A DNA stretch of 64,000 nucleotides from Candidatus Cloacimonadota bacterium (lineage in GTDB: Bacteria > Cloacimonadota > Cloacimonadia > Cloacimonadales > TCS61): positions 171,024 through 235,023 of the forward strand of contig JABGOP010000001.1 in NCBI GenBank assembly GCA_018645365.1, written 5' to 3'. The translations under genes and the position numbers were made by a program. The notes beneath the pieces were generated by a model. That model did not search any database. It had not been told where the DNA came from and worked only from the letters and a program-made list of their open reading frames with translations. Positions 18,323 through 42,005 of the stretch are shown here, piece by piece; positions within the stretch are counted from its first letter, which is position 1; each line of letters begins with the position of its first letter.

Positions 18323-18371
18323 AAAATGAAAAAATGAAGTGAAAACAAGGCTGTCAACCTAAATAACGAAT

Positions 18372-19001: not shown

Positions 19002-19013
19002 TTTTTCTAATTC

Positions 19014-21282: not shown

Positions 21283-21479
21283 TTTTTTCTCCTTATAACA
21301 TCAATATATTTAACACATAACTTTCTTTTATTACCCAACTGTAACGGGTTACGACAAAATTGATATGGTGGTTTGAGCGTCAAGATATTTTTGTAAGGTG
21401 GATATTTATGGACGATTTACTTGACACGCAACACCAAAAAATAAAAGAAATAAATTCGTCAAAATTAAGGAGTAAAACT

Positions 21480-22922: not shown

Positions 22923-24205
22923 TGATGAACGAAAAAATGCAAAAGATAGGTAAATTTATCAGGGAAAATTGTGCAGCAGATGATTTTACTTTACACATCA
23001 ATAATTCGCAAACTTCGGCAACCAGGTTTGCACAAAATGCAATTACCCACAATATGGGAGGCGAAAATACGAATCTCTATTTGGAGGTTACATTTGGTAC
23101 AAAAACAGGTGCTGTTTCAGGCAATATTTTTGATGAAAAATCGTTGCAACAACTAATAAAAACAGCAGAATCAATTGCAAGCCTAAATCAACCAGATCCT
23201 GAATTTGTAGCTTCAGAAGGTGCCCACAAATTACCAGAAACTACCAAAACTTCTCACGAAACAATAAGTTTAAGTTCAGAGAAAATGGTAGATAATATTG
23301 CCAAGTGCGTTGAAAACGCAAAACACAAGGACGCAAATATTTCTGGTATTTCCGAAAAAGAAATTTCCAAAAATTATATGTTAACAAAAAATGGTTTCGA
23401 AGGTTTTGACGAAGAGGCTGTTTTTTCCCATTCGATGACGATGAAGAAAGACGGAAAAGAAACAAAAGTCTCGAAATCTGTGAATGATTTTAATAATTTT
23501 TCAATGGAAAACCAACTTAATCAACTGAACCTACAATTTGATTCTTTGGATAATCCAGTTTCAATGGAAAAAGGCAGAATGCCGGTTATTTTGCGTCCGG
23601 CGGCTGTTTTAAACTGGCTTCACTATCTTGCTTGGGGTTTCAATTTGCGTAGTGCAGACGATGGCTTAACGCCATTTACAGGCAAATTGGGCAAGCAGGT
23701 TTTCGGTGAAAAGTTTAATCTCTATTCACGCCAAAATCAAGCCAAAATTTCTGCGCCAAGTTTTTTTTCTAATGGTTTGCCGGTACGAGATATCGATTGG
23801 ATAAAAAATGGGGTAATTCAAACGATGAGTTCAAATCGATTTTACGCAAATAAAAAGGGGATTTTACCTGCTCAGTTTTATAATTTCATTGTCGATGGCG
23901 AAAATATTTCCGAAAAAGAGATGATGAAAAAAGTAAAACGGGGCGTAATTGTGAATAGTCTGTGGTACATTCGCTCTACGGATCAAAAAGTGGGTGAGCA
24001 AACAGGCTTGACGCGTGACGGCGTGCTTTATTTTGAAGATGGTGAAATCGTAAAATCTGTAAAAAACTTTAGATGGAACGAAATTTTACACGATGCTACC
24101 AAGCGGATAATTGCCCTTGGTGAAAGCGTTCATCAGAGTTATTATGCCAAGATTCCAACAATGTTAATTGACGATTTTAACTTTGTAGATGTAACTACTT
24201 TTTAA
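22919..24205 (+). CDS. pmbA: PmbA/TldE-family protein (partner of TldD)
   Basis: Same fold family as the upstream gene but without HExxH. The ATG overlaps the tldD stop (ATGA). Length is 428 aa. Confidence 0.8.
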   Translation: MMMNEKMQKIGKFIRENCAADDFTLHINNSQTSATRFAQNAITHNMGGENTNLYLEVTFGTKTGAVSGNIFDEKSLQQLIKTAESIASLNQPDPEFVASEGAHKLPETTKTSHETISLSSEKMVDNIAKCVENAKHKDANISGISEKEISKNYMLTKNGFEGFDEEAVFSHSMTMKKDGKETKVSKSVNDFNNFSMENQLNQLNLQFDSLDNPVSMEKGRMPVILRPAAVLNWLHYLAWGFNLRSADDGLTPFTGKLGKQVFGEKFNLYSRQNQAKISAPSFFSNGLPVRDIDWIKNGVIQTMSSNRFYANKKGILPAQFYNFIVDGENISEKEMMKKVKRGVIVNSLWYIRSTDQKVGEQTGLTRDGVLYFEDGEIVKSVKNFRWNEILHDATKRIIALGESVHQSYYAKIPTMLIDDFNFVDVTTF

Positions 24206-27398: not shown

Positions 27399-28334
27399 TT
27401 ACTTTCGCGGCACTAAAACTCTTATTCTGTGGCGATGAAAAGTGATTTCTAAAGTAGATATAATTAACATAATTGCACCTAACATTTGAAAAAACGAAAG
27501 TGAATTTTTATTGATAAAAAAATCAAATAAAACAACTGAAAGTGGGAAGAAAAGCTCGCAAATAGAGGAAGCCATTGCCTTCACCTTTTTCAAACCAAAG
27601 TAGTAGAGGAAAACTCCGCTACCGCCAGTCGTGAGTGCGATAAGCAAAAAGAATTTCCCATTTTGGGTTGTGATATTTTGAAATTCGCCAATTTTTCCAG
27701 CAAAAATAATGTAAAATAACATTAAAAAAGCGGTAAAACCGAACCGATAAAAAGCAACTGTTTTAATAGAAAATTTTGTGAGTGCCGCTTTTCCTAAAAC
27801 GGTTGCACTACCAAATGAAATAGCGGCAAGAAGTGACCACAACGTGGCTTGAATGAGATTGGCATGTTTGTCTAGGCTTGGTGTTGCTCTGCCGAAAGTG
27901 AGAAAATAGCTGGCGAGAATAGCAACAATTGCCCAAACTACAAAATCTTCCCTAAGTCTTTCATTCAAAAATACGGCTGCTAAAATAATGGCAAAAACAG
28001 GTTGTAGTTTTTGGATAAGCACAATAACGGATAAATGGTCAAATTGCGTTAAAGATAGTGCTTTAATGATTGCCATTGTTCCCAAAGAACCGCCAAACAG
28101 TGCAATTCCGAAAAGGAGTAAAAAATCATTTTTGCGGAAAGATTTCAACTTTTTGTATTCCTTAAAAAGAAAAAGATTCATTAATGAAAATGGTATTAAG
28201 TGTAACATGAAAACAACGAAGCCAATATCAAGGTTAAAAAATTTTGGGGTGAATACAACTCCGTCTAATCCCCACATTGTGGCGGCAAGGATTATTGCTA
28301 ATGCACCCACAACTTTTTTATGATAACTATTCAT
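27399..28334 (-). CDS. EamA/DMT-family transporter
   Basis: About 10 predicted TM helices arranged as two similar halves. Length is 311 aa. Confidence 0.7.
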   Translation of the reverse strand: MNSYHKKVVGALAIILAATMWGLDGVVFTPKFFNLDIGFVVFMLHLIPFSLMNLFLFKEYKKLKSFRKNDFLLLFGIALFGGSLGTMAIIKALSLTQFDHLSVIVLIQKLQPVFAIILAAVFLNERLREDFVVWAIVAILASYFLTFGRATPSLDKHANLIQATLWSLLAAISFGSATVLGKAALTKFSIKTVAFYRFGFTAFLMLFYIIFAGKIGEFQNITTQNGKFFLLIALTTGGSGVFLYYFGLKKVKAMASSICELFFPLSVVLFDFFINKNSLSFFQMLGAIMLIISTLEITFHRHRIRVLVPRK

Positions 28335-28391: not shown

Positions 28392-30605
28392 TTAAATCAT
28401 TTCGCCGGCAAATTTTTCGCCGTTACGCACGAATATGGTTGTTTTTAATTTATCCGAAAGCTCGATCAATCTATCTGCATATTCGCTTTCTTCATTTTCG
28501 AGAGGTAAATTCAATCCCATAAATACTAAATCTGCGTCTTTGCTATGTTCATGAATGATTTCCGTAATCGTATTTTCATTTGATTTGACGATGATTTTAG
28601 GTTCCGCTTTGATGCGTACTTCACTAATCATTTCATTCAAATTTTTCAGCATAAATTCGCGATCTTCTTCCATTAAAATAACGGTATGAATAATGACATT
28701 TGCGTTTTTCCACTCGTTATTTAGCGTGAGTAAGTGTGCCAAAAGAAGCATCAAGTCCCCGTTGCTGTGTTTTCCACGCCACCAAAGGTCTATTCTGTTT
28801 TTGGTGGAAAACTCCATGGTTTCATTCATACGAACCAAAAGTGAGCTTTTTTGTAACTTGGAAACGGATTGCACAATTTTCAATAGTGAAACAATGCGTT
28901 CTTTTGAACCAGCCCAACTGAGCATTATGGTATTTGAATGTAGTCCTGCGATGCCGTTTGCTTGCGTAATGTTGGCAACTCCGCTTTCAAAACGAGCAAC
29001 GATATTTATTTCATTGAATGCGTTAATGCCTTCTTTTTTGAGGAGCATATTCATCTGTTGTGTTTCATTTTTAATGTCTGTTTTATTGGTTTTCAAATTA
29101 CCGATTTTCAAATTACAAACAGTCAAAATTCCGCGTCTTTGATTTAGGTAATTGGCTAATTTAATCAAAGGTAATCGTTTTTTGATGTCATCTGCAAAGA
29201 CCAAAATATTTGGTCGCCAATTTCGTGGAGCCTCTTTGTGTTGCTTTAATTTTAGCAATGCGAACCTTGCTAAGCTTCCCCAAAATCCGGCTCGCACATC
29301 TCCCCATTCATTTTTCATCGTGCGGCGTTGCAACAGTAAAAAGAGTGCAACTTCAAATAAAATCCCCAAAACGCAAGCAAGTGGACTGATGAGGAACATC
29401 ACCGCGATGGCACCAAATGACCCCAATAATGAGATAAACCAAGGCACTTTGATTTTGGGACGATAAGATGCATCACCGGTTAAATTTTCTAAAGCAGCAC
29501 TGAAATTTATCATGACATAAAGGGTGAGAAATAAGATAGAAACAAATTGGGCAACCGTGTTTAAACCACCCAACATTACAGCGATTAATGCTATTCCGCC
29601 GCTTATCCATGTGGAAATTGTTGGTTGACCTGTTTTGGAAAGTTTAGCTAAAAATTTGGGAGCTAAGCCATCTTGTGCGAGTGATTGTAAAACTCGTGGA
29701 CCACCCAAAATACTTCCAAAGGCGGAAGATAAGATTGCACCAAAAATTCCAGGAACAATTAAAATCCCGCCAAGAAAGGCAATTTTACTCCAAGTTTTTA
29801 CACCAGTATTTGCTAAATCTTCTGGAAGCATTTTACCTGTAATTGAAAGAAAAACAGGAATCATTAGGTAGATTAATGTTCCGGAAACAACCGCCAAAAG
29901 AGTTCCTTTGGGGATTGATTTTCGTGGATTTTTTAAATCGCCACTCATACCAATTCCAGCAGTAAAACCAGTAACTGCCGGAAAAAAAACAGCAAAAACA
30001 TACCAGAATCCTTTTGGTGCGGTGCGATAGGTAGCAATCATTTCTGGTGCGTGCAATTCTCCCAAAAAAATGCCAATTAAAAGAGCAACAATGGATAATC
30101 CAACTGCGATTAAAATTGGGACTTGCAGTTTCAAAACTAAACTAGCACTTTTTCCTGAAATAAATGTAATGAAGATGATGATGGCTGCTGTAATTATTTG
30201 AATTATGTATGTTGACATTTCACCCAAAGACGCAGGCCAAAACATGGCGATAGTTTCCGCTAAACCAAAACTGTAAAAGGTAATGCTGAGAGTTCTACAC
30301 AAATAGAGAGGAATTCCGATTGTGCCACCTAATTCCAATCCTAAACTGCGCGAAACCATAAAATATTCCCCGCCCACACCAACACTCATATTGGTAGAAA
30401 TTGCGGAAGCACTTAACGCTGTTATAAAGGTGATAGAGCTTGCCAAAAGCACGATGAGTAGCGTGAGTGGTAGCCCAACATTACCCACAACCCAACCAAA
30501 ACGAAGGTACATAATGAGACCCAAAATGGTAAGGACACTGGGCGTGTAAACGCCCAAAAATGTCCCAAATTTTTCTACAACAGGTAAATTATTTTTATTT
30601 TCCAT
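28392..30605 (-). CDS. APC-superfamily permease of the cation-chloride-cotransporter (SLC12)-like type with a large cytosolic C-terminal domain
   Basis: N-terminal roughly 470 aa are polytopic (FGTFLGVYTPSVLTILG, GMSGDLKNPRKSIP, typical of CCC/APC). The C-terminal roughly 260 aa are soluble. The gene starts 14 nt after the thiolase stop. Confidence 0.65.
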   Translation of the reverse strand: MENKNNLPVVEKFGTFLGVYTPSVLTILGLIMYLRFGWVVGNVGLPLTLLIVLLASSITFITALSASAISTNMSVGVGGEYFMVSRSLGLELGGTIGIPLYLCRTLSITFYSFGLAETIAMFWPASLGEMSTYIIQIITAAIIIFITFISGKSASLVLKLQVPILIAVGLSIVALLIGIFLGELHAPEMIATYRTAPKGFWYVFAVFFPAVTGFTAGIGMSGDLKNPRKSIPKGTLLAVVSGTLIYLMIPVFLSITGKMLPEDLANTGVKTWSKIAFLGGILIVPGIFGAILSSAFGSILGGPRVLQSLAQDGLAPKFLAKLSKTGQPTISTWISGGIALIAVMLGGLNTVAQFVSILFLTLYVMINFSAALENLTGDASYRPKIKVPWFISLLGSFGAIAVMFLISPLACVLGILFEVALFLLLQRRTMKNEWGDVRAGFWGSLARFALLKLKQHKEAPRNWRPNILVFADDIKKRLPLIKLANYLNQRRGILTVCNLKIGNLKTNKTDIKNETQQMNMLLKKEGINAFNEINIVARFESGVANITQANGIAGLHSNTIMLSWAGSKERIVSLLKIVQSVSKLQKSSLLVRMNETMEFSTKNRIDLWWRGKHSNGDLMLLLAHLLTLNNEWKNANVIIHTVILMEEDREFMLKNLNEMISEVRIKAEPKIIVKSNENTITEIIHEHSKDADLVFMGLNLPLENEESEYADRLIELSDKLKTTIFVRNGEKFAGEMI

Positions 30606-30619
30606 CGATGCCTAAAATT

Positions 30620-31822
30620 TTAAACTTTTTCAAGTACCATAGCGATACCTTGTCCAACACCTATACACATTGTACAGAGTGCCATTTTAGAATTTGTACG
30701 CTGCAATTGATAAAATGCTGTCGTAACTAATCTTGCACCGCTCATTCCAAGAGGATGCCCGAGTGCTATTGCACCACCGAGTGGATTTATTCTAGGATCA
30801 TCATCTTTAAGACCAAATTCCCTAGAACATCCTAACGATTGTGAAGCAAAAGCTTCATTAAGTTCGATAATATCTATATCATCAAAAGTTAGACCTAAGC
30901 GTTTTAGGAGTTTATTAGTAGCCGGAACAGGTCCCATTCCCATTATGCGTGGTGGAACACCAGCTACATCCATTCCAAGAATTCTAACTTTTGGAGTTAA
31001 TCCATGTTTTTTTACAGCACTTTCCGAAGCTATAATTAAAGCTGCAGCACCATCATTAATGCCGGAAGCATTGCCAGCAGTAATTGATCCGTTTTCACCA
31101 GTAAGAACTCTTAGTGTTGCCAATTTTTCTGGTGATGTAAGTCTTAGATGTTCATCTTTATCAAATATGACTGGATTACCTTTACGTTGAGGAATAGAAA
31201 CAGAAACAATTTCTTCTGCCAGTAAACCATTCTCTTGAGCATCATTGGCTTTCTGCTGGCTCCAATGAGCAAATTTATCTTGATCTTCACGACTAATATT
31301 ATGCTCTTTTGCTATGTTTTCTGCAGTCATTATTAATGGATCGGTACCAAATTTCTTATTGAAAATCTTATTTACAAAACGCCAGCCAATAGTTGTATCA
31401 TGCACTTCTGGTGCTCTTGAAAATGCTGCTAAAGGCTTTCCCATAACATAAGGAGCTCGTGACATACTTTCGATTCCACCAGCAATTATCAAGTCCGCTT
31501 CACCTGCTTTAATTGCTCTGACAGCAGTGCCTATTGCATCCATCCCCGAACCGCAAAGTCTGTTTATTGTCACCCCAGGAATAGCTTCTGAAAATCCAGC
31601 AAGTAGGGAAGCCATTCTGGCAACATTACGATTATCTTCACCTGCCTGGTTTGCACACCCCATAAGGATATCATCAACTGCAAGCCAATCAACATTAGGA
31701 TTTCTTTTCATGATTTCTTTTAGTGGGATTGCACCCAAATCATCCGGTCTGATAGATGAAAGACTACCGCCATATCTTCCTACAGGAGTTCTAATTGCAT
31801 CACATATAAATACATCTGTCAT
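30620..31822 (-). CDS. Thiolase, closest by eye to 3-oxoadipyl-CoA thiolases (PaaJ/PcaF type)
   Basis: FICDAIRTPVGRYGG, GCANQAGEDNRNVARMA, active-site NRLCGSGMDA, DTTIGWRFVN, GNASGINDGAAA and C-terminal CTMCIGVGQGIAM. The long identities are to E. coli PaaJ as I remember it. Confidence 0.8.
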   Translation of the reverse strand: MTDVFICDAIRTPVGRYGGSLSSIRPDDLGAIPLKEIMKRNPNVDWLAVDDILMGCANQAGEDNRNVARMASLLAGFSEAIPGVTINRLCGSGMDAIGTAVRAIKAGEADLIIAGGIESMSRAPYVMGKPLAAFSRAPEVHDTTIGWRFVNKIFNKKFGTDPLIMTAENIAKEHNISREDQDKFAHWSQQKANDAQENGLLAEEIVSVSIPQRKGNPVIFDKDEHLRLTSPEKLATLRVLTGENGSITAGNASGINDGAAALIIASESAVKKHGLTPKVRILGMDVAGVPPRIMGMGPVPATNKLLKRLGLTFDDIDIIELNEAFASQSLGCSREFGLKDDDPRINPLGGAIALGHPLGMSGARLVTTAFYQLQRTNSKMALCTMCIGVGQGIAMVLEKV

Positions 31823-31837
31823 AAATTTTACCTCAAA

Positions 31838-33184
31838 TTATATATTTTCTAGTTCTGATTTTATTAGTTTGAAACCATTGAGTATTGCCGCTGAAAGTAT
31901 ATCAACTTCCTTTTGTTTAAGAGCTGTTGAAAACATGCAGGTGCAAGTGTTAACCATCATTATTCTTTCATTAATAAAAAGATAATCGAGTAATTTTTTT
32001 ATCAATAATGTTTTTTCTTTAGTTTGGAACGCTTCGCGGTAAGTAGTTGGTGGTGTTGCTGTTAGGTGAATGCGGAACATTGAGCCTGCACCAGTAATGG
32101 AAACAGGAACATCTGCAATTTTTATCGCTTCTTTAATTTGACTGATTGCTTTTTGAGTTAAGGCATTTAATTTTAAAACAGCATCTTCATCAAATAATTC
32201 CATAGCAACACGTCCTGCAGTCATGGTTATTGGGTTTGCAGAAAAAGTACCAGAATGAGGGAAGAGTAGTTTACTTTCGCTTGGATCGAGCACTTTCATA
32301 ATATCACCCCTTCCAGCAAGAGCTCCAACGGGAAATCCGCCACCTATCATTTTTCCCATTGCGGTAAGGTCTGGTTTTACTGAATAATTATTTTGTGTAC
32401 CACTATAATTTACACGTAGGGTCACTACTTCATCAAATACTAGCAATGCACCATTTCTACGAGTCCAATTGTACATAGCTTCTATGAAATCAGAATGTGC
32501 TTGGATTAGTCCTACTCTGTGTGGAACAGGATCGATTAAAATGCAAGCTATGTCATTAGCATGTTGATCTAAAATTGCAATAGTTCTTTCAATATCATTA
32601 AAAGGAAAAATAATAACATCATCCAAAACTCCTTGCGGAGTGCCGTTTGCCAGCGGAACACTGTTGGGATTATTTATATCACCCCAATTTGAAGGATTAG
32701 CAGTTTGGCTAATTTCGGCAAAATCATAAGTGCCGTGGTAAGCTCCTTCTGCTTTAGCAATTTTCGGTCTACCTGTATAAGCTCTAGACGCTTTTATCAT
32801 TGCCATTACTGCTTCAGTACCCGAGTTCATAAAACGGATTTTATCAAAAGTTGGTACTCTATTACACAGTAATTGGGCAAAAGCAACTTCAGCTTCAGTT
32901 GCCATAGTGTAGGCAGTTCCTTTTCGTAATTGTTCGGTGACTGCATCAACGATCTGCGGATTTGCATGACCATGGATTAAAGATGCCATATTATTAGCGA
33001 AGTCTATTCGCTGAACACCATCAATATCGTTTACGTAGCACCCAGAAGCACTAGAAACATAAAACGGATGCGGTTTCCTAAAGATAGTATTTCTGCTTAC
33101 GCCACCAGGAAGCACATTACAAGCTTGTTTATAAATCTCTTTACTTGAATGTTTTTGTTCTGTTGAATTAATATTATTATTCAT
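31838..33184 (-). CDS. Class-III PLP aminotransferase of the glutamate-1-semialdehyde-aminomutase-like branch
   Basis: LPGGVSRN, MNSGTEAVM, and the PLP-lysine context DLTAMGKMIGGGFPVGA that parallels GSAM. Confidence 0.8.
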   Translation of the reverse strand: MNNNINSTEQKHSSKEIYKQACNVLPGGVSRNTIFRKPHPFYVSSASGCYVNDIDGVQRIDFANNMASLIHGHANPQIVDAVTEQLRKGTAYTMATEAEVAFAQLLCNRVPTFDKIRFMNSGTEAVMAMIKASRAYTGRPKIAKAEGAYHGTYDFAEISQTANPSNWGDINNPNSVPLANGTPQGVLDDVIIFPFNDIERTIAILDQHANDIACILIDPVPHRVGLIQAHSDFIEAMYNWTRRNGALLVFDEVVTLRVNYSGTQNNYSVKPDLTAMGKMIGGGFPVGALAGRGDIMKVLDPSESKLLFPHSGTFSANPITMTAGRVAMELFDEDAVLKLNALTQKAISQIKEAIKIADVPVSITGAGSMFRIHLTATPPTTYREAFQTKEKTLLIKKLLDYLFINERIMMVNTCTCMFSTALKQKEVDILSAAILNGFKLIKSELENI

Positions 33185-33223
33185 AATTTTAAGTAATCCT
33201 CCATAAGATTAGATGACAATATT

Positions 33224-33880
33224 TTAATATTGATGCAGTTTTGCACCAGTATTTTGCTGTAGATATTCAAAAGTAACATCAGGTGCAAGTTCTCTTACAA
33301 AAAGACCTTTATCTGTAACATCGATTATAGCAAGATTACTATAAATTCTATTAACAACCCCTTTTCCAGTGAGGGGATATGTACATTCTTTAATTATTTT
33401 AGAATCACCATGTTTAGTGGTATGCTGAGTTATAACAAATATTGTCTTCACTCCCGCAACCAGATCCATTGCTCCACCAACAGCTGGGATGGCACCAGGT
33501 TTACCTGTTGACCAATTAGCTAAATCACCTTCTTGGGAAACCTGCATGGCACCTAAAACACAGATGTCGATATGACTTCCGCGGATCATTGTGAAGCTGT
33601 CTGCATGATGAAAGAAACAAGCACCAGGAATAGCAGTTATACATTTTTTCCCGGCATTAATTAATTCGGGATCTTCCTTGCCACTCTCTGGAACCTGACC
33701 CATACCAAGTAAACCATTTTCTGTATGATAAATAACTTCTCTTCCATCGGGTACGAAATCCGCAACTAATTCTGGCATACCAATTCCAAGATTTACATAA
33801 GATCCATCGGGAATATCAAGAGCAGCTTTTTGTGCCATTTGATTTCGATCCCAACCAATTTTCTTTTCTGTTATCGACAT
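33224..33880 (-). CDS. 3-oxoacid CoA-transferase, subunit B
   Basis: 218 aa. The catalytic-Glu region is HTENGLLGMG. There is a 10-nt overlap with subunit A. Confidence 0.85.
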   Translation of the reverse strand: MSITEKKIGWDRNQMAQKAALDIPDGSYVNLGIGMPELVADFVPDGREVIYHTENGLLGMGQVPESGKEDPELINAGKKCITAIPGACFFHHADSFTMIRGSHIDICVLGAMQVSQEGDLANWSTGKPGAIPAVGGAMDLVAGVKTIFVITQHTTKHGDSKIIKECTYPLTGKGVVNRIYSNLAIIDVTDKGLFVRELAPDVTFEYLQQNTGAKLHQY

Positions 33881-34587
33881 GGATACCTCCTGTCTTCAGC
33901 AACGAGTTTAGATTCAGCTTCGGGATTTGTAACTTCTATAACTTTTGTTACAAAGATTCCAGGAGTGACTACGATTTCTGGGTCTATCTCACCGGGTTCG
34001 ACTATTTTTTTTGTCTGAACAATTGTTGTTTTGGCAGCAGTGCACATGATTGGACCAAAATTTCTGGCAGTTTTATGATAGGTTAAATTTCCATATCTAT
34101 CCGCAAGATTACATTTTACTAATGAAAAATCTGCTTTTATTGCATATTCCATAACATAAGTTTTACCTTCAATAATACGAATTTCTTTTCCCTCGGCAAG
34201 TGGAGTATTTACAGAACTTGGTGTAAAAAAGGCAGGAATACCTGCACCTCCAGCTCTGATGCGTTCTGCAAGTGTTCCTTGCGGAACAAGCTCAAGTTCG
34301 ATCTCGTTTTTATAATACAAATCTGGAAATACTGTAGAATTAGCAGTTCTTGGAAATGAACAAATCATTTTTTTTACTTGCTTATTCTCAATAAGTGCTG
34401 CAAGTCCGACATGACCGCTTCCGGTATTATTACTCACAACAGTAAGGTCTTTTGCACCATGATCTATTAATGCATGAATTAATTCTATGGGGCTGCCTGC
34501 TTCTCCGAACCCGCCAATTAAAACAATAGCTCCGTCAAAAATATCAGCAACAGCTTCTGCTGCTGAATTTACAATTTTATTAATCAT
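33871..34587 (-). CDS. 3-oxoacid CoA-transferase, subunit A
   Basis: 238 aa with IGGFGEAGSP, VSNNTG and QGTLAERIRAGGAGIPAFFT. Confidence 0.85.
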   Translation of the reverse strand: MINKIVNSAAEAVADIFDGAIVLIGGFGEAGSPIELIHALIDHGAKDLTVVSNNTGSGHVGLAALIENKQVKKMICSFPRTANSTVFPDLYYKNEIELELVPQGTLAERIRAGGAGIPAFFTPSSVNTPLAEGKEIRIIEGKTYVMEYAIKADFSLVKCNLADRYGNLTYHKTARNFGPIMCTAAKTTIVQTKKIVEPGEIDPEIVVTPGIFVTKVIEVTNPEAESKLVAEDRRYPCR

Positions 34588-34618
34588 AAATTATTCTCCT
34601 TTGAAATTGATTAATTTA

Positions 34619-36226
34619 TTATTTTTTTAATCTTTTTTCTAAAGTTTCCTGAAGAGCATCTTCTTTGTTTTTTAAATCATCTTCGTAGAAATGTTTATCT
34701 GTATCAAATGGTTTAAGATTTGCAATTGTGTTTTCTTTCTCATCATATTTTGTTAGGAAAACCTTATCTAACCATTCCATATTTCTAGCTTCGTTAAATT
34801 TTAAAGCAAATGCTGTTTTGCCGTTCACTTCAACTGTTCCCAATAAAGATACTTTTCCTGCTGAAGATGTCATGGTGATATATCTTGATGGACGGTTTAT
34901 TGAGGGTAGGGAACGGTAAACTTTATTGAAAACTCTATTTATGTCTGCAAGTGGGACAGTGAAATAATGATGTTCACCGGTTGGTCGTGCACAATACATA
35001 GAATGAAATCCAATAGACAATATTGCAAGAATGTTGCCTAAATCTATCCAGTTTTGAGCAGAGCGTTCAACATCAATTTTACCATTTTCATCAGTGAATA
35101 AGCTGATGTGATTCATTATGGGACTCTGGCTTTTAATGACTACTCCCGCAGCTCTAAGCCTACGGACTGCTGCAATTGTGCTAATGTTCAAAAGTTCTTT
35201 TGGAGTAGAAATATGAGCCATCCACACAACTTGAATTCCATTGTTGTTTAGTTTTTTAAATAAATCTAACATATTGTTATAATCATTACTTAAAATCATT
35301 TCTGGAGAAAAAGTAAGAGCCCTAGTTCCAAGACGCAAAGTTCTAATGTGCATAAGGTTTGGGTTTTCAATTAACGGCAGAACATATTGTTCTAACCTCT
35401 CAAAACTCATTTTACTAGCATCTCCACCGGTTATGAGTACATCAGTAATCTCTTTATGTAGTGCTAAATAATTATGAACTTGTTTAATCTCTCTCTGGAT
35501 GAACATATCTTCATCACCACGAACCTGAGCATGACGGAAGCAGTATGTACAGAATGCAAAACAGCTTTGTGTTGTTTTGTCAAAGAGAAGAATGCATTGC
35601 GGATATTTATGCTGACAACCATCAAGAATTTCTAATTCACCATCTTCATTTTTGAACCATGGTTTGTTTAATAGTTGCTTGCCATCATGAGGGTTTGTCA
35701 TTTTCATATATTCATCAATTATTGTTTTTCTTTCATCGTCAGATTTTGCTTCAGTATATAAATTAACTGTTTCGGCTTGTATCATTTCCAGTTGAGGAAA
35801 AACAAGTTGGAAGAGAGAGTCATCAGTAAAATTATTCCAATTTATTGTGTTGAGAACATGCTTGGTTGCCAAAAAGCGATAAACTTGAATAAAAAGCTCG
35901 CGTGCTTTGATATGTCCGATATTGATTCCACTTTTGTGTAATATTTCAACTATTTCTCTAAAACCGCTTAATCCTGCATAATGTTCTTTGCCAGTGAATA
36001 AAAATTTGGAAGACTCCATTATGTCTGAATGATGAGTAAAGCAGGAATGCAATCTTGATAACACACCAGCAGGCAGAAGATTTTCTTTCATAATATTCGA
36101 TTTTATATCATCAGAATAGTGATAGCGATCCATCATTTTTTTAACATCAGAAACCTGAATATCAATTTTTTTGACAGAATTTTTTGTGTCAGATTTCTCT
36201 TCTCTTGCGTTTTGAATTGTAGCCAT
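34619..36226 (-). CDS. KamA-family radical-SAM / PLP amino-acid 2,3-aminomutase-like protein, long form (535 aa)
   Basis: CFAFCTYC (Cx3Cx2C), DVLITGGDA, LRLGTRAL, and YCARPTGEHHYFTVPL paralleling KamA YQCDLSLGLEHFRTPV. The PLP-lysine context is SSAGK. There is an extra N-terminal region of roughly 130 aa. Confidence 0.75.
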   Translation of the reverse strand: MATIQNAREEKSDTKNSVKKIDIQVSDVKKMMDRYHYSDDIKSNIMKENLLPAGVLSRLHSCFTHHSDIMESSKFLFTGKEHYAGLSGFREIVEILHKSGINIGHIKARELFIQVYRFLATKHVLNTINWNNFTDDSLFQLVFPQLEMIQAETVNLYTEAKSDDERKTIIDEYMKMTNPHDGKQLLNKPWFKNEDGELEILDGCQHKYPQCILLFDKTTQSCFAFCTYCFRHAQVRGDEDMFIQREIKQVHNYLALHKEITDVLITGGDASKMSFERLEQYVLPLIENPNLMHIRTLRLGTRALTFSPEMILSNDYNNMLDLFKKLNNNGIQVVWMAHISTPKELLNISTIAAVRRLRAAGVVIKSQSPIMNHISLFTDENGKIDVERSAQNWIDLGNILAILSIGFHSMYCARPTGEHHYFTVPLADINRVFNKVYRSLPSINRPSRYITMTSSAGKVSLLGTVEVNGKTAFALKFNEARNMEWLDKVFLTKYDEKENTIANLKPFDTDKHFYEDDLKNKEDALQETLEKRLKK

Positions 36227-36239
36227 AATTGCTCCGATA

Positions 36240-37529
36240 TTATTTTATTTTTATAAATTTTTCTAAGTATTTAAAATCATCTTCCAATTTTCCGCGGTGC
36301 GTAATGCACGCTTTTTTAATTTCATCTGGCAGTGTTGAATCTGCGATTGATTTTGTGTAATCATTCAAAAGCATCTCTTTTATAAATGGCATTAATGCTT
36401 CCGAAAATGTATCAGACGCTTCTTTTGGGAATTCGCATGGAAGGTTGTCAACGGCACAATTAGCTATTCCATCACCAGCAAATCCATCGGTAATTTTACC
36501 CGTTTTTGGATTGAAAATAAAGGTGGAATTATCGGGATAAGTTGCTTTTAATGTAGCTTCTACTGAGCCACCAATATCGCAAGTGATATCACCGATAATG
36601 ATGAGTTTTTGCCATTTTTCGAGTTCGGCATTTCTCAGGAAAACAGGATAGCCCGGTGCCCAGTAAATAGCGTTCATATAAACGCTACAGTGTGGCAAGT
36701 ATTGCTCCATATTTGAAAGATATTTATCACCGTTTTGGAAATAATCTGAAAGCTCAAAGGGTTGTCCATCGGCGCGTTTTACCATATCTTTTTCTTTGAA
36801 AACCGTAAGATAAATCTTGTTGTTCTTGTGGTTTTTTGAATGTGCCCCTAATTGGTTTGGCTTTATCTCTATTATTGGTAATTTTGCCAAAATTTCTTTG
36901 CAACCGCTAGCCACATGACCATATCCCATCAGAAAAATATTAAGTGGAACAATCTCGTCAGGTAACCCAGTTTTTGCTATTTCTTTACCAATTTCACCGA
37001 TGTGTTCAATCGCTTTCTGTAAAGATTCGTATTCAAATGAACGCTTAATTTTCAAAAAAGGTGTATCTATTTTGAATTGTCGTTTCAACCTTTGACCCAG
37101 CCCCCAAAGTGTGTCCACCATACCTGCATCGCCGGCAAATTTCCCAAAAAAGACTAATCTGCGATTTTGAATATCTGCAATTTTTTCATAATCAAAAAGG
37201 GTAATGTTTTGGTCTAAAATATTTTGCAGAAGTGGCATGTTGTAATCTTGCCCTTTGATTGTGTGCGAAAAAAATAAGTGTGGTTTATTAGGAATTAAAT
37301 CATCAATAGGAATCTCTTTCACGCCGATAATTAAGTCACATTCCGATAAATCAGCAGAAATTTGAGCACCCACATTTAGGTACTCGTCATCTTTATAAAT
37401 CCGAATTTGGGAGGGTTGTACTATTACTTCAAAGCCGTCATTAACCAACTTTTTGACCGCTGTTGGATTTAGTGGAACGCGTCGTTCCCATTTATTTTTT
37501 GTCTCAATTTTTATGCCTAATTTTCTCAT
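36240..37529 (-). CDS. Lysine-ketoglutarate reductase-like (saccharopine dehydrogenase, L-lysine-forming; AASS N-terminal half homologue)
   Basis: By-eye alignment to the LKR half of animal AASS: NKWERRVPLNP, FFSHTIKGQDYNMPLL, LFDYEKI, GDITCDIGGSVE and VDNLPCEFPKEAS. Confidence 0.75.
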   Translation of the reverse strand: MRKLGIKIETKNKWERRVPLNPTAVKKLVNDGFEVIVQPSQIRIYKDDEYLNVGAQISADLSECDLIIGVKEIPIDDLIPNKPHLFFSHTIKGQDYNMPLLQNILDQNITLFDYEKIADIQNRRLVFFGKFAGDAGMVDTLWGLGQRLKRQFKIDTPFLKIKRSFEYESLQKAIEHIGEIGKEIAKTGLPDEIVPLNIFLMGYGHVASGCKEILAKLPIIEIKPNQLGAHSKNHKNNKIYLTVFKEKDMVKRADGQPFELSDYFQNGDKYLSNMEQYLPHCSVYMNAIYWAPGYPVFLRNAELEKWQKLIIIGDITCDIGGSVEATLKATYPDNSTFIFNPKTGKITDGFAGDGIANCAVDNLPCEFPKEASDTFSEALMPFIKEMLLNDYTKSIADSTLPDEIKKACITHRGKLEDDFKYLEKFIKIK

Positions 37530-37541
37530 TTATCTGTCTTC

Positions 37542-38861
37542 CTAAAAGAATTTTTCGATTAATTTAATGTTGAGGTTTTCAAGTTCAGCCAAAACGGGTT
37601 CATAAATTTCTGGGAGAGTAGGCATGTAAACGCCAGTCAAATTTATTTTGTTTTCCAAAATTATGCGAACAGCAATTGCCGCAGGCAAAGAGACCGTTCT
37701 TGCCATCGAACTGTCGCCGTTTGGAATTCCATAATCTATCATTGTGGATGTTATTTTTTGGGTTTTATTTGGATATTTAGCGACAAATTTATGATGTAGA
37801 ACAAGTAAATCTCGTTCGCCTTTTTCGTACGACATTTTTTCGAGCATAATGGCGGTGAGAACATCGATTGCTCCACCTTTTTTGATTGGAATTTTTGAGT
37901 CATCGAAAAAACCAAGCCACTCAAATTTTTTCAAGATAATGCCATTTTTGGAAAGATTAAATTTTTCTATTAAAAAAGTCTTAAGGCATTCACCTTTGTT
38001 TAATTTGAACATTTTAGTTAAAATAAATTCCTTCACGGTTCCTGTTAAATTCTCAAAAATTTCGTCCTCTTTATAGAACCCCATTTGCGATAACGTAAAC
38101 CATGTGTCGCAATGGCTAATATTTCGGAAGGTTCCTCTGTACATTGTTTTCACATCTTTCAAATTGTATAAATCAACGTAGTCTAGCGAGTTACGGTTTG
38201 GGTATGCTTCTAGGGTTCCGATGCCATCTACATCAACGAGCCAATAGTTAGCAAAAAGATTTTTACCCTCTACCTCGATAATTTCACCATTTTTCATATA
38301 TTTAGCGCCATTTCCAGCTGCCTTTAGAACACCCTTGGGAGCCCACGAAAATTTATATCCGAGTGGGTTTGTGTTTGCTTCTGGAGCCGGAAGTCCGCCA
38401 CAATAACTCATAAAGCTGATGACCTTTCCACCGTTTTCTTCCACTTGATGAAAAATTTTCATCGCACTCATGTGGTCTATACCAGGATCAACGCCAATTT
38501 CATTCAAAATAATGATGCCAGCTTTTTTTGCCGCTTCATCAAGTTGGCGCATTTCGGGACTAATGTAGGAAGCCGTAACCATATTTTTTTTATGCTTGAT
38601 GCATTTTTTGGCAATTTTTACATGAAAAATAGCTGGCAATAAACTAACCACAATGTCGCTATTTTGCACCAGATTGTCAAGCTCTTCAGCATTGTTTATG
38701 TTGAATTGAAAAGGGGTGGCGTTTGTGTGGTTATCGGTAAGTTTTTTTGCTTTTGAGAAAGCAATGTCTGCAACCGTAATTTCATAACCGTGTTTAGCTA
38801 AATAATCCACCATCGGTTTTACTACTAATCCCGCACCGAGAATAGTCACTTTTTTATTCAT
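37542..38861 (-). CDS. Saccharopine dehydrogenase (L-glutamate-forming; Lys9 / AASS C-terminal half homologue)
   Basis: VTILGAGLV Rossmann motif, MVTASYISPEM, GVDPGIDHMSAM, YCGGLPAPEANTNPLGYKFSWAP and LEAYPNRNS. Confidence 0.8.
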   Translation of the reverse strand: MNKKVTILGAGLVVKPMVDYLAKHGYEITVADIAFSKAKKLTDNHTNATPFQFNINNAEELDNLVQNSDIVVSLLPAIFHVKIAKKCIKHKKNMVTASYISPEMRQLDEAAKKAGIIILNEIGVDPGIDHMSAMKIFHQVEENGGKVISFMSYCGGLPAPEANTNPLGYKFSWAPKGVLKAAGNGAKYMKNGEIIEVEGKNLFANYWLVDVDGIGTLEAYPNRNSLDYVDLYNLKDVKTMYRGTFRNISHCDTWFTLSQMGFYKEDEIFENLTGTVKEFILTKMFKLNKGECLKTFLIEKFNLSKNGIILKKFEWLGFFDDSKIPIKKGGAIDVLTAIMLEKMSYEKGERDLLVLHHKFVAKYPNKTQKITSTMIDYGIPNGDSSMARTVSLPAAIAVRIILENKINLTGVYMPTLPEIYEPVLAELENLNIKLIEKFF

Positions 38862-39036: not shown

Positions 39037-40668
<1,632 letters not shown>

Positions 40669-40946: not shown

Positions 40947-42005
40947 ATGAAAAACAAAACGATTCTTTTGACGCTAGTATTAGCGTTCGTACTGCCTATT
41001 TTTATTTATGCGACTACCAATGCTGCTGTGATTTTTCTATTGATAGAACCGAGTGCACGTGCAAGTGCAATGGGTGAAGCATATGTTGCCCAAGTTGACG
41101 ATGGCTTTGCCGGATATTGGAATCCTGGAGCGATGGCATTCAACCGTAAAACACAATTTGCCAGTATGTACTCAAATTGGTTTGGTGAAATTTTTTATGA
41201 CATGTATTATTTTCATGCTGCCGGGAACCAATACATTGATGGCGTGGGAAATTTGGGTGTTAATTTCACCTATATGACTTATGGTAGTCAAGACAAAACA
41301 GATGAAAATGGTGAAACGATTTATTCATTTGAAAGTTATGATTTGTCTATTGCGACCACCTACGCATCTCAAATTACCTCAAACATAGGTTTAGGAACAA
41401 CATTTAAATTTATCCTGAGTGACCTTGACCCAGAGGCTACAAAAGGGTTGGGATTAAGTTATGCATTTGACATTGGCTACAAACAGAAAAATATTTTTAC
41501 AGTTCCAAATTTAGCTTTTGGTTTTAATTTACAAAATATAGGACCCGACATTGTTTATCTTGATGATTCAAATGCAGATCCACTTCCAATGAATTTCAGA
41601 ATGGGTTTTTCTTTTATTCCAGTAAATAGTCAACTTAGCAAACTTACGATCAATGCAGATATGAATAAGGTTTTAGCAAATCGTGATCCACTTTACAAAC
41701 GCTTTTTTACAGCGTGGATAGATGACAACACTTACGCAGATTTTGATTCTTTTAATAATTTTATTAATTCAACAGAAATTCGTGAAATTGTGTGGAGTCT
41801 CGGTGCAGAGTATGACTATTTAAATCTTTTATCATTGCGTGGTGGCTATATTTTAGATAGAGCTGGCGAGATAAAAGGTCCAAGTTTTGGTGCTGGCTTT
41901 CATTATGAATTGAATGAATATTTGGTAAAAATAGATTATTCATTCCAACCAGCTGGCGGTTTGCAAGATTACAACCAAACTCTTTCAGTTGGTGTAGATT
42001 TCTAA
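40947..42005 (+). CDS. Outer-membrane beta-barrel, PorV/LptO-like (FadL-fold)
   Basis: Signal peptide. The N-terminal motif SARASAMGEAYVAQVDDGFAGYWNPGAMAF resembles the PorV/UPF0164 signature. The sequence shows an alternating beta-strand pattern and a C-terminal aromatic residue (VDF). Confidence 0.5.
   Translation: MKNKTILLTLVLAFVLPIFIYATTNAAVIFLLIEPSARASAMGEAYVAQVDDGFAGYWNPGAMAFNRKTQFASMYSNWFGEIFYDMYYFHAAGNQYIDGVGNLGVNFTYMTYGSQDKTDENGETIYSFESYDLSIATTYASQITSNIGLGTTFKFILSDLDPEATKGLGLSYAFDIGYKQKNIFTVPNLAFGFNLQNIGPDIVYLDDSNADPLPMNFRMGFSFIPVNSQLSKLTINADMNKVLANRDPLYKRFFTAWIDDNTYADFDSFNNFINSTEIREIVWSLGAEYDYLNLLSLRGGYILDRAGEIKGPSFGAGFHYELNEYLVKIDYSFQPAGGLQDYNQTLSVGVDF

Follow-up and report, generated by a model that had tools for sequence, protein, structure and literature searches.

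A conserved five-gene module beside saccharopine-pathway genes in Cloacimonadota suggests a lysine catabolic route through 3-aminoadipate and 3-oxoadipate

Results

Organization of the locus

The window analysed here, a 64,000-nucleotide stretch of contig JABGOP010000001.1 from a Candidatus Cloacimonadota bacterium, contains seven closely packed open reading frames on the minus strand between positions 30620 and 38861 (Table 1), all of which lie exactly where the first-pass annotation had placed them. The intergenic distances from SDH to THL are, in order, 12, 13, 31, -10, 39 and 15 bp, the negative value being the overlap of the CoTB start with CoTA. The run is bounded upstream by a divergent GroEL gene and extends, with like spacing and on the same strand, past position 30620 through an SLC12-like permease, which begins 14 bp beyond THL, an EamA transporter, purB and purA. 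The permease is kept at the equivalent position in three Cloacimonadota loci, two of which also have the EamA transporter downstream; it is possibly the transporter of the pathway considered below.

Table 1. Features of the gene run and its immediate flanks
Gene	Family or predicted product	Coordinates	Strand	Length (aa)	Remark
SDH	Saccharopine dehydrogenase, glutamate-forming	37542..38861	-	439	
LKR	Lysine-ketoglutarate reductase	36240..37529	-	429	
AM	KamA-like radical-SAM/PLP aminomutase	34619..36226	-	535	
CoTA	3-oxoacid CoA-transferase subunit A (PcaI/ScoA family)	33871..34587	-	238	
CoTB	3-oxoacid CoA-transferase subunit B (PcaJ/ScoB family)	33224..33880	-	218	
AT	Class-III aminotransferase, GSAM-like/beta-transaminase branch	31838..33184	-	448	
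THL	Thiolase, PcaF/PaaJ type	30620..31822	-	400	
	SLC12-like amino-acid permease	28392..30605	-		Pfam AA_permease and SLC12; operon membership uncertain
	EamA-family transporter	27399..28334	-		Pfam EamA; operon membership uncertain
	GroEL	39037..40668	+		Divergent; upstream boundary of the run

Five of the seven genes form the conserved unit

The order AM-CoTA-CoTB-AT-THL is fixed in 94 of 97 informative non-redundant loci, and a chance arrangement can be excluded because this core is syntenic to such an extent. Carriers of the module belong to the Bacteroidota, Ignavibacteriota, Cloacimonadota and other groups, and are mostly anaerobes. The seven-gene cluster first described needs correction in this respect: the evolutionarily conserved unit is the five genes, whereas the seven-gene version, with SDH and LKR upstream of the module, is specific to the Cloacimonadota, in which SDH adjoins the module at four loci. 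Lysine-related neighbours occur at only ~10 of 148 non-redundant module loci and are lacking at about 90%, where the substrate is thus inferred by orthology only. Most module loci stand alone with an XRE-cupin regulator as sole companion, and a carbonic anhydrase gene lies downstream of the module in nine. It should be emphasized that these counts describe loci and not co-occurrence at the level of genomes.

SDH and LKR resemble the two halves of AASS

Profile searches agreed with the families initially proposed for all seven proteins. SDH contains the Pfam domains Sacchrp_dh_NADP and Sacchrp_dh_C, and its top relative of known structure is the saccharopine reductase of Magnaporthe (1E5L, 314 bits), with the yeast enzyme (2AXQ) and the human AASS SDH domain (5L78) also near. 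LKR contains AlaDh_PNT_N and AlaDh_PNT_C and, among proteins of known structure, scores highest against the human AASS LKR domain (8E8U, 265 bits), whereas fungal lysine-forming SDH reaches ~72 bits. The two genes therefore correspond, as first suggested, to the separated halves of AASS, a single protein with both activities in animals and plants. On the strength of this homology LKR would condense lysine with 2-oxoglutarate to saccharopine, which SDH would split into glutamate and 2-aminoadipate semialdehyde (AASA). Among relatives the LKR and SDH genes are invariably paired. The pair is also found without the module, joined to another putative aminoadipate/oxoadipate-processing gene set, an arrangement that fits a modular design of upper and lower pathways.

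The transferase and thiolase point to a C6 dicarboxylate

CoTA exceeds the cut-off of TIGR02429 (pcaI_scoA; 343 against 128.5 bits) and CoTB that of TIGR02428 (pcaJ_scoB; 300 against 243.55 bits). CoTA falls below the AtoD equivalog threshold (199 against 315 bits), and in comparisons with the PDB it matches ScoA (3CDK, 217 bits) better than AtoD (168 bits). Of the assignments initially entertained for the transferase, AtoDA is thus disfavoured, but the available models cannot separate PcaIJ from ScoAB; membership of the PcaIJ/ScoAB family is secure, while 3-oxoadipate as the substrate is inferred. THL passes both the pcaF equivalog TIGR02430 (660.7 bits, cut-off 597) and NF006551 (680.9 bits, cut-off 605), and scores 549 bits against the beta-ketoadipyl-CoA thiolase of P. 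putida (6PCA) compared with ~310 bits against acetoacetyl-CoA (AtoB-type) thiolases, which confirms the PcaF/PaaJ assignment first proposed. The family of THL is firm; its role as a 3-oxoadipyl-CoA thiolase is inferred. A PcaF-type thiolase combined with a succinyl-CoA-type transferase points to a C6 dicarboxylate.

AT, an Aminotran_3 protein, is not a GSAM by the hemL equivalog cut-off (342 against 527 bits). Its top solved relative is the omega-transaminase of Sphaerobacter thermophilus (6K8H, 388 bits), the substrates of which are beta- and gamma-amino acids, and it also matches the beta-transaminases of Mesorhizobium (2YKU) and Variovorax (4AO9) with 195-202 bits, all within the same GSAM-like class-III branch. 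AT is predicted to be a 3-aminoadipate transaminase, an activity that has not been measured. Work on the known transaminases of this type has dealt with beta-amino acids that are aromatic or simple aliphatic, and no member is known to use 3-aminoadipate or to belong to such a catabolic operon.

AM belongs to a separate KamA-like family

The only solved homologue of AM is the lysine 2,3-aminomutase (LAM, KamA) of Clostridium subterminale (2A5H), which is also the sole full-length fold match of the predicted AM model (pTM 0.79; TM 0.60 over 413 columns). AM retains the Fe-S motif (C222-x3-C226-x2-C229), the alpha-carboxylate arginine (R231, equivalent to R134 in LAM) and the PLP lysine (K458, equivalent to K337). 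It differs from LAM in sharing only 18% identity and in an N-terminal extension of ~100 residues. AM reaches no NCBIfam KamA-family cut-off; its scores are 67 bits for the lys_2_3_AblA equivalog (cut-off 525) and 59 bits for TIGR04368, the equivalog of glutamate 2,3-aminomutase (cut-off 650). With its homologues it makes up a separate, tight KamA-like family that has the full LAM fold but no name. Certain sources label members of this family 'L-lysine 2,3-aminomutase'.

In the LAM structure D293 and D330 reportedly hold the epsilon-ammonium group of lysine. In tool-made alignments D293 aligns with R414 of AM, an arginine that is invariant in the family, and D330 corresponds to T451, a position occupied by Thr or Ser; the mapping of D330 and K337 relies on a gapless extension of 14 residues past the LAM sequence printed by the tool. 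These substitutions speak against lysine and favour a substrate that carries a distal carboxylate, although glutamate is not excluded. AM is predicted, from genomic context and these two active-site positions, to be a 2-aminoadipate 2,3-aminomutase representing a new KamA-like subfamily; its activity is unmeasured.

The missing dehydrogenase is encoded beside the module in Prolixibacteraceae

The absence of an AASA dehydrogenase from the cluster had been identified as the main gap in the pathway. Indeed, no aldehyde dehydrogenase gene was found in the cluster, in the rest of the window or within ~10 kb past either end of it, and no AASA dehydrogenase was found at the sibling Cloacimonadota loci. 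The missing step is, however, represented in Prolixibacteraceae, where a divergent SDH gene lies upstream of the module and an L-piperideine-6-carboxylate (P6C)/AASA dehydrogenase gene, directly adjoining THL in the same cluster, lies downstream together with a second SDH-family gene. This arrangement was seen in cultured Maribellus luteus and in Draconibacterium (a Draconibacterium-type contig). By its score against NF050084 (802 bits, cut-off 730) the ALDH7A1-like protein is a bona fide P6C/AASA dehydrogenase. Such enzymes work in the oxidative direction and yield 2-aminoadipate. That the enzymes leading from lysine to 2-aminoadipate join the module differently in different lineages favours a route from lysine to 3-aminoadipate.

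Discussion

We consider it fairly likely that in this anaerobic, Cloacimonadota-like bacterium the genes of the cluster act as an operon for lysine catabolism via 2-aminoadipate, 3-aminoadipate and 3-oxoadipate, a proposal that is in silico only. After the LKR and SDH reactions, an aldehyde dehydrogenase encoded outside the cluster, unidentified in the Cloacimonadota lineage, is inferred to oxidize the semialdehyde to 2-aminoadipate. AM would then shift the amino group by one carbon (C2 to C3), AT would convert the resulting 3-aminoadipate to 3-oxoadipate, the CoA-transferase would activate the latter with succinyl-CoA as donor, and THL would cleave 3-oxoadipyl-CoA to succinyl-CoA and acetyl-CoA. 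Since thiolysis would restore the CoA donor, the five-gene module would be self-contained, giving a net conversion of 2-aminoadipate, an amino acceptor and CoA to succinate, acetyl-CoA and an amino acid. The first-pass annotation knew of no pathway linking the saccharopine branch to the lower beta-ketoadipate branch through an aminomutase; no description was found in the literature searched, and the route is probably previously undescribed.

Parts of this scheme are familiar. The saccharopine pathway (AASS with ALDH7A1, or bacterial LKR/SDH) likewise yields 2-aminoadipate, which it then takes through 2-oxoadipate to glutaryl-CoA, or to 2-hydroxyglutarate via HglS. The cluster, in contrast, has no 2-oxoadipate-processing enzyme, but an aminomutase and a beta-transaminase-like protein. 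With the beta-ketoadipate lower pathway (PcaIJ and PcaF) it shares the transferase and thiolase families and the logic of succinyl-CoA recycling, but not the aromatic ring-cleavage genes; 3-oxoadipate would derive from an amino acid, in hosts that are mostly anaerobes. Classical lysine fermentation is also an anaerobic amino-acid catabolism begun by a 2,3-amino shift, but it yields butyrate and acetate rather than the succinate and acetyl-CoA predicted here, and profile searches of the cluster found none of KamDE, Kdd, Kce and Kal, leaving a KamA relative alone, as previously noted.

It could be argued that the module degrades glutamate, through beta-glutamate, 3-oxoglutarate and 3-oxoglutaryl-CoA (or acetoacetate after decarboxylation) to acetyl-CoA plus malonyl-CoA or acetyl-CoA, the adjacency of SDH and LKR reflecting use of the glutamate released by SDH. 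The arginine at the D293 position suits any substrate with a distal carboxylate, and glutamate 2,3-aminomutase (Eam of Clostridioides difficile), also of the KamA family and active on an acidic amino acid, reportedly has Lys and Asn in place of the two aspartates. Stand-alone loci with an XRE-cupin regulator would be expected of a common substrate, and the downstream carbonic anhydrase is in keeping with this alternative. THL, however, is of the PcaF type by a curated cut-off and ~240 bits closer to that group than to acetoacetyl-CoA thiolases, the linked P6C dehydrogenase yields 2-aminoadipate and not glutamate, AM lies far below the glutamate 2,3-aminomutase cut-off, and the genes that accompany AM indicate a C6 rather than a C5 substrate. 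Moreover, although malonyl-CoA would be expected via 3-oxoglutaryl-CoA, no malonyl-CoA-handling gene recurs near the module. Glutamate degradation, raised at the outset as an alternative, is thus weakened and in our judgement unlikely, but it is not excluded.

The substrate of AM could also be another amino acid, such as 2-aminopimelate, or a derivative, for instance the semialdehyde. The assignment of 2-aminoadipate rests solely on context and two residues in a protein remote from all characterized KamA enzymes, and the lack of an aldehyde dehydrogenase gene at the Cloacimonadota loci could mean that 2-aminoadipate does not arise in these bacteria at all. The C6 preference indicated by the transferase and thiolase, and the P6C dehydrogenase gene abutting THL in Prolixibacteraceae, render this improbable. 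It is very doubtful that SDH-LKR and the module are merely unrelated neighbours: lysine-related genes flank few module loci, the clearly unrelated purB and purA share the strand run and the SDH-LKR pair exists without the module, but different lineages join the module, in differing arrangements, to 2-aminoadipate-forming enzymes, and the gaps here are merely 12-13 bp.

Two readings are scarcely tenable. The first, likewise raised at the outset, that AM is a lysine 2,3-aminomutase feeding beta-lysine through 3-oxo-6-aminohexanoate to 4-aminobutyryl-CoA and acetyl-CoA, draws on the database label and on LAM being the only solved homologue, but it conflicts with the loss of both lysine-holding aspartates, the low AblA score and a thiolase suited to dicarboxylates, and were lysine itself the substrate of AM then LKR, SDH and the P6C dehydrogenase would be pointless. 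The second is lysine biosynthesis from succinyl-CoA and acetyl-CoA through 3-oxoadipate, 3-aminoadipate, 2-aminoadipate and saccharopine; every step except aldehyde oxidation is reversible in principle and fungal lysine synthesis employs the same SDH and LKR families, but aminoadipate reductase is absent, the P6C dehydrogenase is oxidative and LKR is much nearer to the catabolic AASS domain than to the fungal Lys1-type enzyme.

Support for the route from lysine to 3-oxoadipate thus comes from the lineage-varied linkage, the substitutions at D293 and D330 and the PcaF-type thiolase, without biochemical proof. The presence of the module in cultured anaerobes such as Maribellus luteus leaves the route open to experiment. 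If it is correct, lysine-derived 2-aminoadipate would enter the end of the beta-ketoadipate pathway after a 2,3-amino shift.

Organization of the cluster and its surroundings

The first-pass annotation had described a run of seven minus-strand genes, and this is borne out by the positions of the open reading frames (ORFs), whose families match Pfam and NCBIfam profiles (see table). In transcription order the intergenic gaps are 12, 13, 31, -10 (an overlap), 39 and 15 bp. A divergent GroEL gene forms the upstream boundary of the run which, past the thiolase, goes on along the same strand with an SLC12-like permease, an EamA transporter, purB and purA; G+C content is ~35% across the whole region. 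Scans for sigma-70 promoters and intrinsic terminators were uninformative, promoter-like sites being rarer than in shuffles and none falling within an intergenic gap of the cluster. Pfam and NCBIfam profiles detected no KamDE, Kdd, Kce or Kal family among the cluster and flanking genes, and the earlier statement that the classical lysine-fermentation genes are absent thus stands for the cluster and its flanks. Elsewhere on the plus strand of the window are a TldD/PmbA metallopeptidase pair (21360-24205), a homologue of PorV (type IX secretion; 40947-42005) and a gene of the aromatic-amino-acid/histidine ammonia-lyase family (45895-47424), which fit an amino-acid fermenter of the FCB group.

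Genes of the cluster in transcription order, with window coordinates and profile matches
Gene	Position	Strand	Profile match
Saccharopine dehydrogenase (SDH)	37542-38861	-	Pfam Sacchrp_dh_NADP + Sacchrp_dh_C
Lysine-ketoglutarate reductase (LKR)	36240-37529	-	Pfam AlaDh_PNT N + C
Aminomutase (AM), 535 aa	34619-36226	-	residues 197-375 weakly match KamA-family models
CoA-transferase subunit A (CoTA)	33871-34587	-	pcaI_scoA, above cut-off
CoA-transferase subunit B (CoTB)	33224-33880	-	pcaJ_scoB, above cut-off
Class-III aminotransferase (AT)	31838-33184	-	top model hemL, under its cut-off (342 < 527)
Thiolase (THL)	30620-31822	-	pcaF equivalog (TIGR02430) passed, 660.7 bits vs 597

A distinct subfamily of radical-SAM aminomutases

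As judged from its sequence, the aminomutase represents a distant, unnamed subfamily of the KamA-family radical-SAM/PLP aminomutases. The protein does not reach the cut-off of the KamA-family model TIGR00238 (81.7 bits against 199.2), to which the core residues 197-375 alone align, and it meets neither the equivalog for lysine 2,3-aminomutase (EC 5.4.3.2; TIGR03820, 67.1 bits against 525.4) nor that for glutamate 2,3-aminomutase (EC 5.4.3.9; TIGR04368, 59.4 bits against 650). The sole significant full-length fold match of its AlphaFold model (pTM 0.79, mean pLDDT 75.7) is the lysine 2,3-aminomutase KamA of Clostridium subterminale (LAM; PDB 2A5H), with E = 3.8e-12, a target-normalised TM of 0.60 and 18% identity over 413 aligned columns, and the modelled structure shows the overall LAM fold. 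A helical N-terminal extension (residues ~20-110), confidently modelled (pLDDT 87-96) and containing invariant residues, is missing from shorter relatives of 30-36% identity and is covered by no family model.

A word-indexed search returned 1,564 homologues, at least 64% identical among the 120 listed and labelled 'hypothetical' or 'lysine 2,3-aminomutase' at source; the closest came from Candidatus Cloacimonadota metagenome-assembled genomes (MAGs; 86-88% identity), which makes this phylum the most likely origin of the window. An exhaustive search of 50%-identity representatives found one full-length representative at 61%, the next full-length relatives being at 40% and then at 30-36%. None of these 40% and 30-36% relatives passed an NCBIfam equivalog, and P0244 and P0250, the nearest outgroup relatives, lie in unrelated gene contexts, with no CoA-transferase, transaminase or thiolase. 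These contexts are therefore uninformative on substrate; together with the gap in identity and the lack of an equivalog, they indicate that the family is tight and well separated.

The CxxxCxxC [4Fe-4S]/SAM motif is present as the invariant C222, C226 and C229, which align to C125, C129 and C132 of LAM, and R231 aligns to LAM R134. When aligned directly with LAM, by sequence or by family profile, the aminomutase could be followed only as far as LAM residue 264, short of the side-chain pocket, and two bridges were made through the relatives of 30-36% identity, the first a profile aligning to LAM 97-323 (130 bits) and the second a pairwise LAM alignment from one such relative. In both, LAM D293 is paired with the Arg of an x-R-D/P-T-G motif, an Arg that corresponds in the window's family to the invariant R414, within SMYCARPTG. 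K458 (in SSAGK), invariant in both alignments, lies 17 residues past the position aligned with LAM S320. Its equation with LAM K337, and that of T/S451 with LAM D330, were obtained by a gapless 17-residue extension from S320, in which LAM residues 324-337 lie past the sequence aligned by the tools, and on this extension K458 would qualify as the PLP-binding lysine. We take the LAM residues to have the roles reportedly assigned in the 2005 structure paper of Lepore et al., in which R134 binds the alpha-carboxylate, D293 and D330 the epsilon-ammonium of lysine, and K337 the PLP. Neither Asp is kept in the window aminomutase, D293 being replaced by R414 (by alignment) and D330 by T/S451 (by extension). 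As both lysine-binding Asp residues are gone, and one is now an invariant Arg, lysine is disfavoured and a substrate with an anionic side-chain end is predicted. 2-Aminoadipate is nearly isosteric with lysine and carries a carboxylate at the position of the ammonium. Glutamate, one carbon shorter than 2-aminoadipate, is not excluded by this residue-based argument.

Enzymes predicted to act after the aminomutase

The two CoA-transferase subunits, whose genes overlap by 10 bp, meet TIGR02429 (CoTA; 343.1 bits against 128.5) and TIGR02428 (CoTB; 300.3 bits against 243.55). CoTA does not reach the AtoD equivalog (199 < 315) and, among solved structures, scores 217 bits with 3CDK, a succinyl-CoA:3-ketoacid transferase, against 168 bits with AtoD. 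The comparison with PcaIJ and AtoDA/ScoAB that had been proposed was thus decided only in part: the AtoD cut-off was missed, but PcaIJ could not be separated from ScoAB, as one NCBIfam model spans both and only ScoA-type structures (217 bits) are in the PDB.

The aminotransferase fails the hemL equivalog TIGR00713 (341.8 bits against 527.3). Its top solved relative, at 388 bits, is 6K8H, an omega-transaminase of Sphaerobacter thermophilus for beta- and gamma-amino acids, followed by ForI and then by glutamate-1-semialdehyde aminomutases (GSAMs) and the beta-transaminases 2YKU and 4AO9. The window enzyme is thereby placed, by similarity, nearest a beta/gamma-amino-acid transaminase and not GSAM. 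The earlier reading of the thiolase as PcaF/PaaJ was confirmed both by equivalog cut-off, NF006551 (680.9 bits against 605) being passed as well as the pcaF model, and by structure scores, which were 549-561 bits with the beta-ketoadipyl-CoA thiolases 6PCA (549) and 8GQH and ~310 with acetoacetyl-CoA thiolases. The protein meets the models of 3-oxoadipyl-CoA thiolase (PcaF/PaaJ), and its activity on 3-oxoadipyl-CoA is inferred.

Conservation of a five-gene module

Loci (designated L) were sampled from species-representative genomes (80) and metagenomes (80), with a few added by exact-protein look-up. After de-duplication 148 contained the aminomutase, 97 of which had enough downstream sequence to be judged. 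The order AM-CoTA-CoTB-AT-THL was kept in 94 of these 97, and the conserved unit thus comprises five genes. Co-occurrence of the cluster as a unit in relatives holds for this core, SDH and LKR being immediately upstream only in Cloacimonadota (the window and L004, L006, L007 and L008/L088). The hosts include Bacteroidales, Lentimicrobiaceae, Marinilabiliales, Prolixibacteraceae, Balneolales, Ignavibacteriota/Melioribacteraceae, Edwardsbacteria and Cloacimonadota, together with MAGs labelled Acidobacteria and Chlorobiaceae and the isolate Ancylomarina salipaludis. Some 90% of module loci have no lysine-related neighbour within 10 kb. In 39 non-redundant loci, many of them from Bacteroidota, a ~184-aa XRE-type HTH + cupin regulator is encoded just upstream of the aminomutase on the same strand (for example, L072 9386-9940); the window lacks it, having SDH-LKR at that position, and it is probably a dedicated sensor and regulator of the module.

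Variations on this arrangement were also seen. Nine Bacteroidales loci carry a beta-class carbonic anhydrase gene (Pro_CA) directly downstream of the thiolase gene (for example, L034 15608-16261). In one Cloacimonadota MAG (L006 2769-4811) a 680-aa Peptidase_M23 + FlgD_ig ORF between the LKR and aminomutase genes breaks the tight operon. In L037 (10001-12946), L111 (6805-9785) and L104, one of which is labelled Roseivirgaceae, the gene directly after the aminomutase is that of the aminotransferase, and neither a CoA-transferase nor a thiolase is encoded nearby, which suggests that AM and AT form a minimal pair; the route may there be completed by generic PcaIJF-like enzymes encoded elsewhere.

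Proposed supply of 2-aminoadipate from lysine

Among solved structures the SDH is most similar to 1E5L, a fungal saccharopine reductase (314 bits), and to the SDH domain of human AASS (270 bits). For the LKR the best match is the corresponding domain of human AASS (8E8U, 265 bits), the fungal lysine-forming SDH scoring only ~72 bits. By homology the pair meets what is expected of the LKR and glutamate-forming SDH of the saccharopine pathway. The first-pass annotation had identified the lack of a 2-aminoadipate semialdehyde (AASA) dehydrogenase as the main gap in the proposed route. In the window's own lineage the gap remains: a search of the window, of sibling Cloacimonadota loci and of ~10 kb past each end of the window found no aldehyde dehydrogenase, and thus no AASA/piperideine-6-carboxylate (P6C) dehydrogenase of the ALDH7 type. 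A P6C dehydrogenase gene (509-515 aa) does, however, adjoin the thiolase gene downstream in Prolixibacteraceae-type loci (L050/L118, L069, L154 and L157), and the AASA dehydrogenase step is thus encoded beside the module in another lineage. This aldehyde dehydrogenase passes NF050084, the L-piperidine-6-carboxylate dehydrogenase equivalog (802 bits against 730); among solved structures it is closest to ALDH7A1/antiquitin and Pcd. The next gene in these loci encodes a 448-aa protein of the saccharopine-dehydrogenase family, and a second SDH, which shares 44-46% identity with that of the window, is divergent upstream in L157, L126 and L159. An eight-gene cluster, in which a divergent SDH is followed by AM-CoTA-CoTB-AT-THL-P6CDH-SDH2, is found in cultured Maribellus luteus (GCA_003576475.1; L170) and on a contig (L169) that carries a protein assigned by NCBI to Draconibacterium orientale. 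The proteins of both are 59-78% identical to those of the window, with the aminomutase motifs intact; the M. luteus aminomutase gene lies at L170 4411-5997.

Downstream of the cluster in both L169 and L170 (~15876-20408) is an unusual gene set, which encodes two proteins with a GCV_H (lipoyl/H-protein) domain (555-561 aa and, last in the set, ~237-239 aa), a ferredoxin-like protein (Fer4_11) and a membrane protein resembling NrfD. In L004 (17066-18193), and at the matching position in L006, an extra 375-aa ORF of the saccharopine-dehydrogenase family lies between the SLC12-like permease and EamA genes, and may encode an enzyme of the lysine 6-dehydrogenase-like or the polyamine type; the window lacks it, its permease-EamA gap being only 57 bp.

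The SDH-LKR pair also occurs in a sister cluster (L084 8585-20756, L085 8633-19865 and L086 8542-19859), with an LKR 59-62% identical to that of the window. On the same strand follow genes for a CitE/ACP fusion, CitF and an Iso_dh-family dehydrogenase, then a small gene that is either HD-domain or unassigned, and finally genes for two aconitase-family proteins of ~600 aa; this set has no aldehyde dehydrogenase and no aminotransferase. It reads like the alpha-aminoadipate pathway in reverse, from lysine through 2-oxoadipate, homoisocitrate and homocitrate to acetate and 2-oxoglutarate, and is possibly a second, undescribed lysine route. Parts of the set are also found next to the five-gene module, in L011 (12462-16040, minus strand) and L057 (6095-7153), and in L136 (15748-21361), likewise beside the module, a 744-aa HMGL-like::CoA-transferase-III fusion is encoded between the Iso_dh and aconitase genes. 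We take the sister cluster to support a putative modular design in which an upper lysine-to-aminoadipate part is combined with alternative lower parts.

Discussion

In the route proposed here LKR would condense lysine with 2-oxoglutarate to saccharopine, which SDH would split into glutamate and 2-aminoadipate semialdehyde; oxidation of the latter to 2-aminoadipate would be catalysed by the P6C dehydrogenase in Prolixibacteraceae and is a gap in Cloacimonadota. The new aminomutase would then convert 2-aminoadipate to 3-aminoadipate, which the beta-transaminase would turn into 3-oxoadipate. Finally, the CoA-transferase, with succinyl-CoA as donor, would form 3-oxoadipyl-CoA, to be cleaved by the thiolase to succinyl-CoA and acetyl-CoA. 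Because the thiolase would regenerate the CoA donor, five genes should suffice to take 2-aminoadipate to succinate and acetyl-CoA, a self-sufficiency that fits the occurrence of the module as a stand-alone operon. The two saccharopine steps and the predicted CoA-transferase and thiolase reactions are based on strong homology; the aminomutase and transaminase steps are inferred from gene context and active-site residues. There is no biochemistry for the seven-step route through 3-aminoadipate, which we nevertheless consider probable. We also lean towards the broader view that the widespread, self-contained module is built on an unrecognised radical-SAM 2-aminoadipate 2,3-aminomutase, to which different lineages add either LKR and SDH or SDH paralogues and P6C dehydrogenase.

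It could be argued that the module instead takes glutamate through beta-glutamate to 3-oxoglutarate, a reading that suits the invariant Arg and the stand-alone operons. It sits poorly, however, with a PcaF-type thiolase and with the linkage to P6C dehydrogenase, no gene for malonyl-CoA handling accompanies the module, and we regard it as unlikely. There is a still slighter chance that the substrate is some other compound. That SDH-LKR and the module are merely unrelated neighbours is very improbable given their differing arrangements across lineages. The beta-lysine route, which the first-pass annotation had offered as an alternative, is rejected on the active-site residues (D293 to invariant R414, D330 to T/S451) and the failure to meet TIGR03820, and we give it hardly any credence. 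Operation in the biosynthetic direction is scarcely tenable, and is rejected, as Prolixibacteraceae have the P6C dehydrogenase, no aminoadipate reductase is present and the LKR is closer to the catabolic type.

Every enzyme family in the cluster is already known; what is new is the predicted specificity of the aminomutase and the junction of the saccharopine branch with the beta-ketoadipate branch. To our knowledge, a step from 2-aminoadipate to 3-aminoadipate occurs in no EC entry and in no lysine pathway described so far, the described lysine routes that pass through 2-aminoadipate all proceed via 2-oxoadipate, and the radical-SAM 2,3-aminomutases to date act on lysine, glutamate or arginine. 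A literature search, in which most subscription journals lay outside coverage so that a prior description is possible, retrieved no paper that deals with a 2-aminoadipate aminomutase or places 3-aminoadipate in lysine catabolism and, within the same scope, nothing relevant on beta-aminoadipate or on Cloacimonadota with saccharopine. The nearest matches were a review of synthetic adipate routes only and a metabolomics paper in which 3-aminoadipic acid appears as an untargeted annotation ascribed to a plant extract; this does not count as evidence for the pathway.

The hypothesis is directly testable, as cultured Maribellus and Draconibacterium hold the complete cluster. As intermediates, 3-aminoadipate and 3-oxoadipate also attract interest for the bio-based production of adipate and levulinate. 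Anaerobic digesters, sediments and similar habitats commonly harbour the module, for which the searches gave over 1,500 homologues and 148 non-redundant loci. It could thus alter the annotation of lysine fermentation and syntrophic amino-acid oxidation in metagenomes, in which the aminomutase gene is presently called 'hypothetical' or 'lysine 2,3-aminomutase'. If the proposal is true, radical-SAM 2,3-aminomutases would be extended by a new substrate class, the branch that leads through 3-aminoadipate to the beta-ketoadipate end pathway would count as new, and anaerobic and facultative bacteria of the FCB group (Cloacimonadota, Bacteroidales, Ignavibacteriota and others) would gain an oxidative lysine route that bypasses 2-oxoadipate dehydrogenase and glutaryl-CoA.
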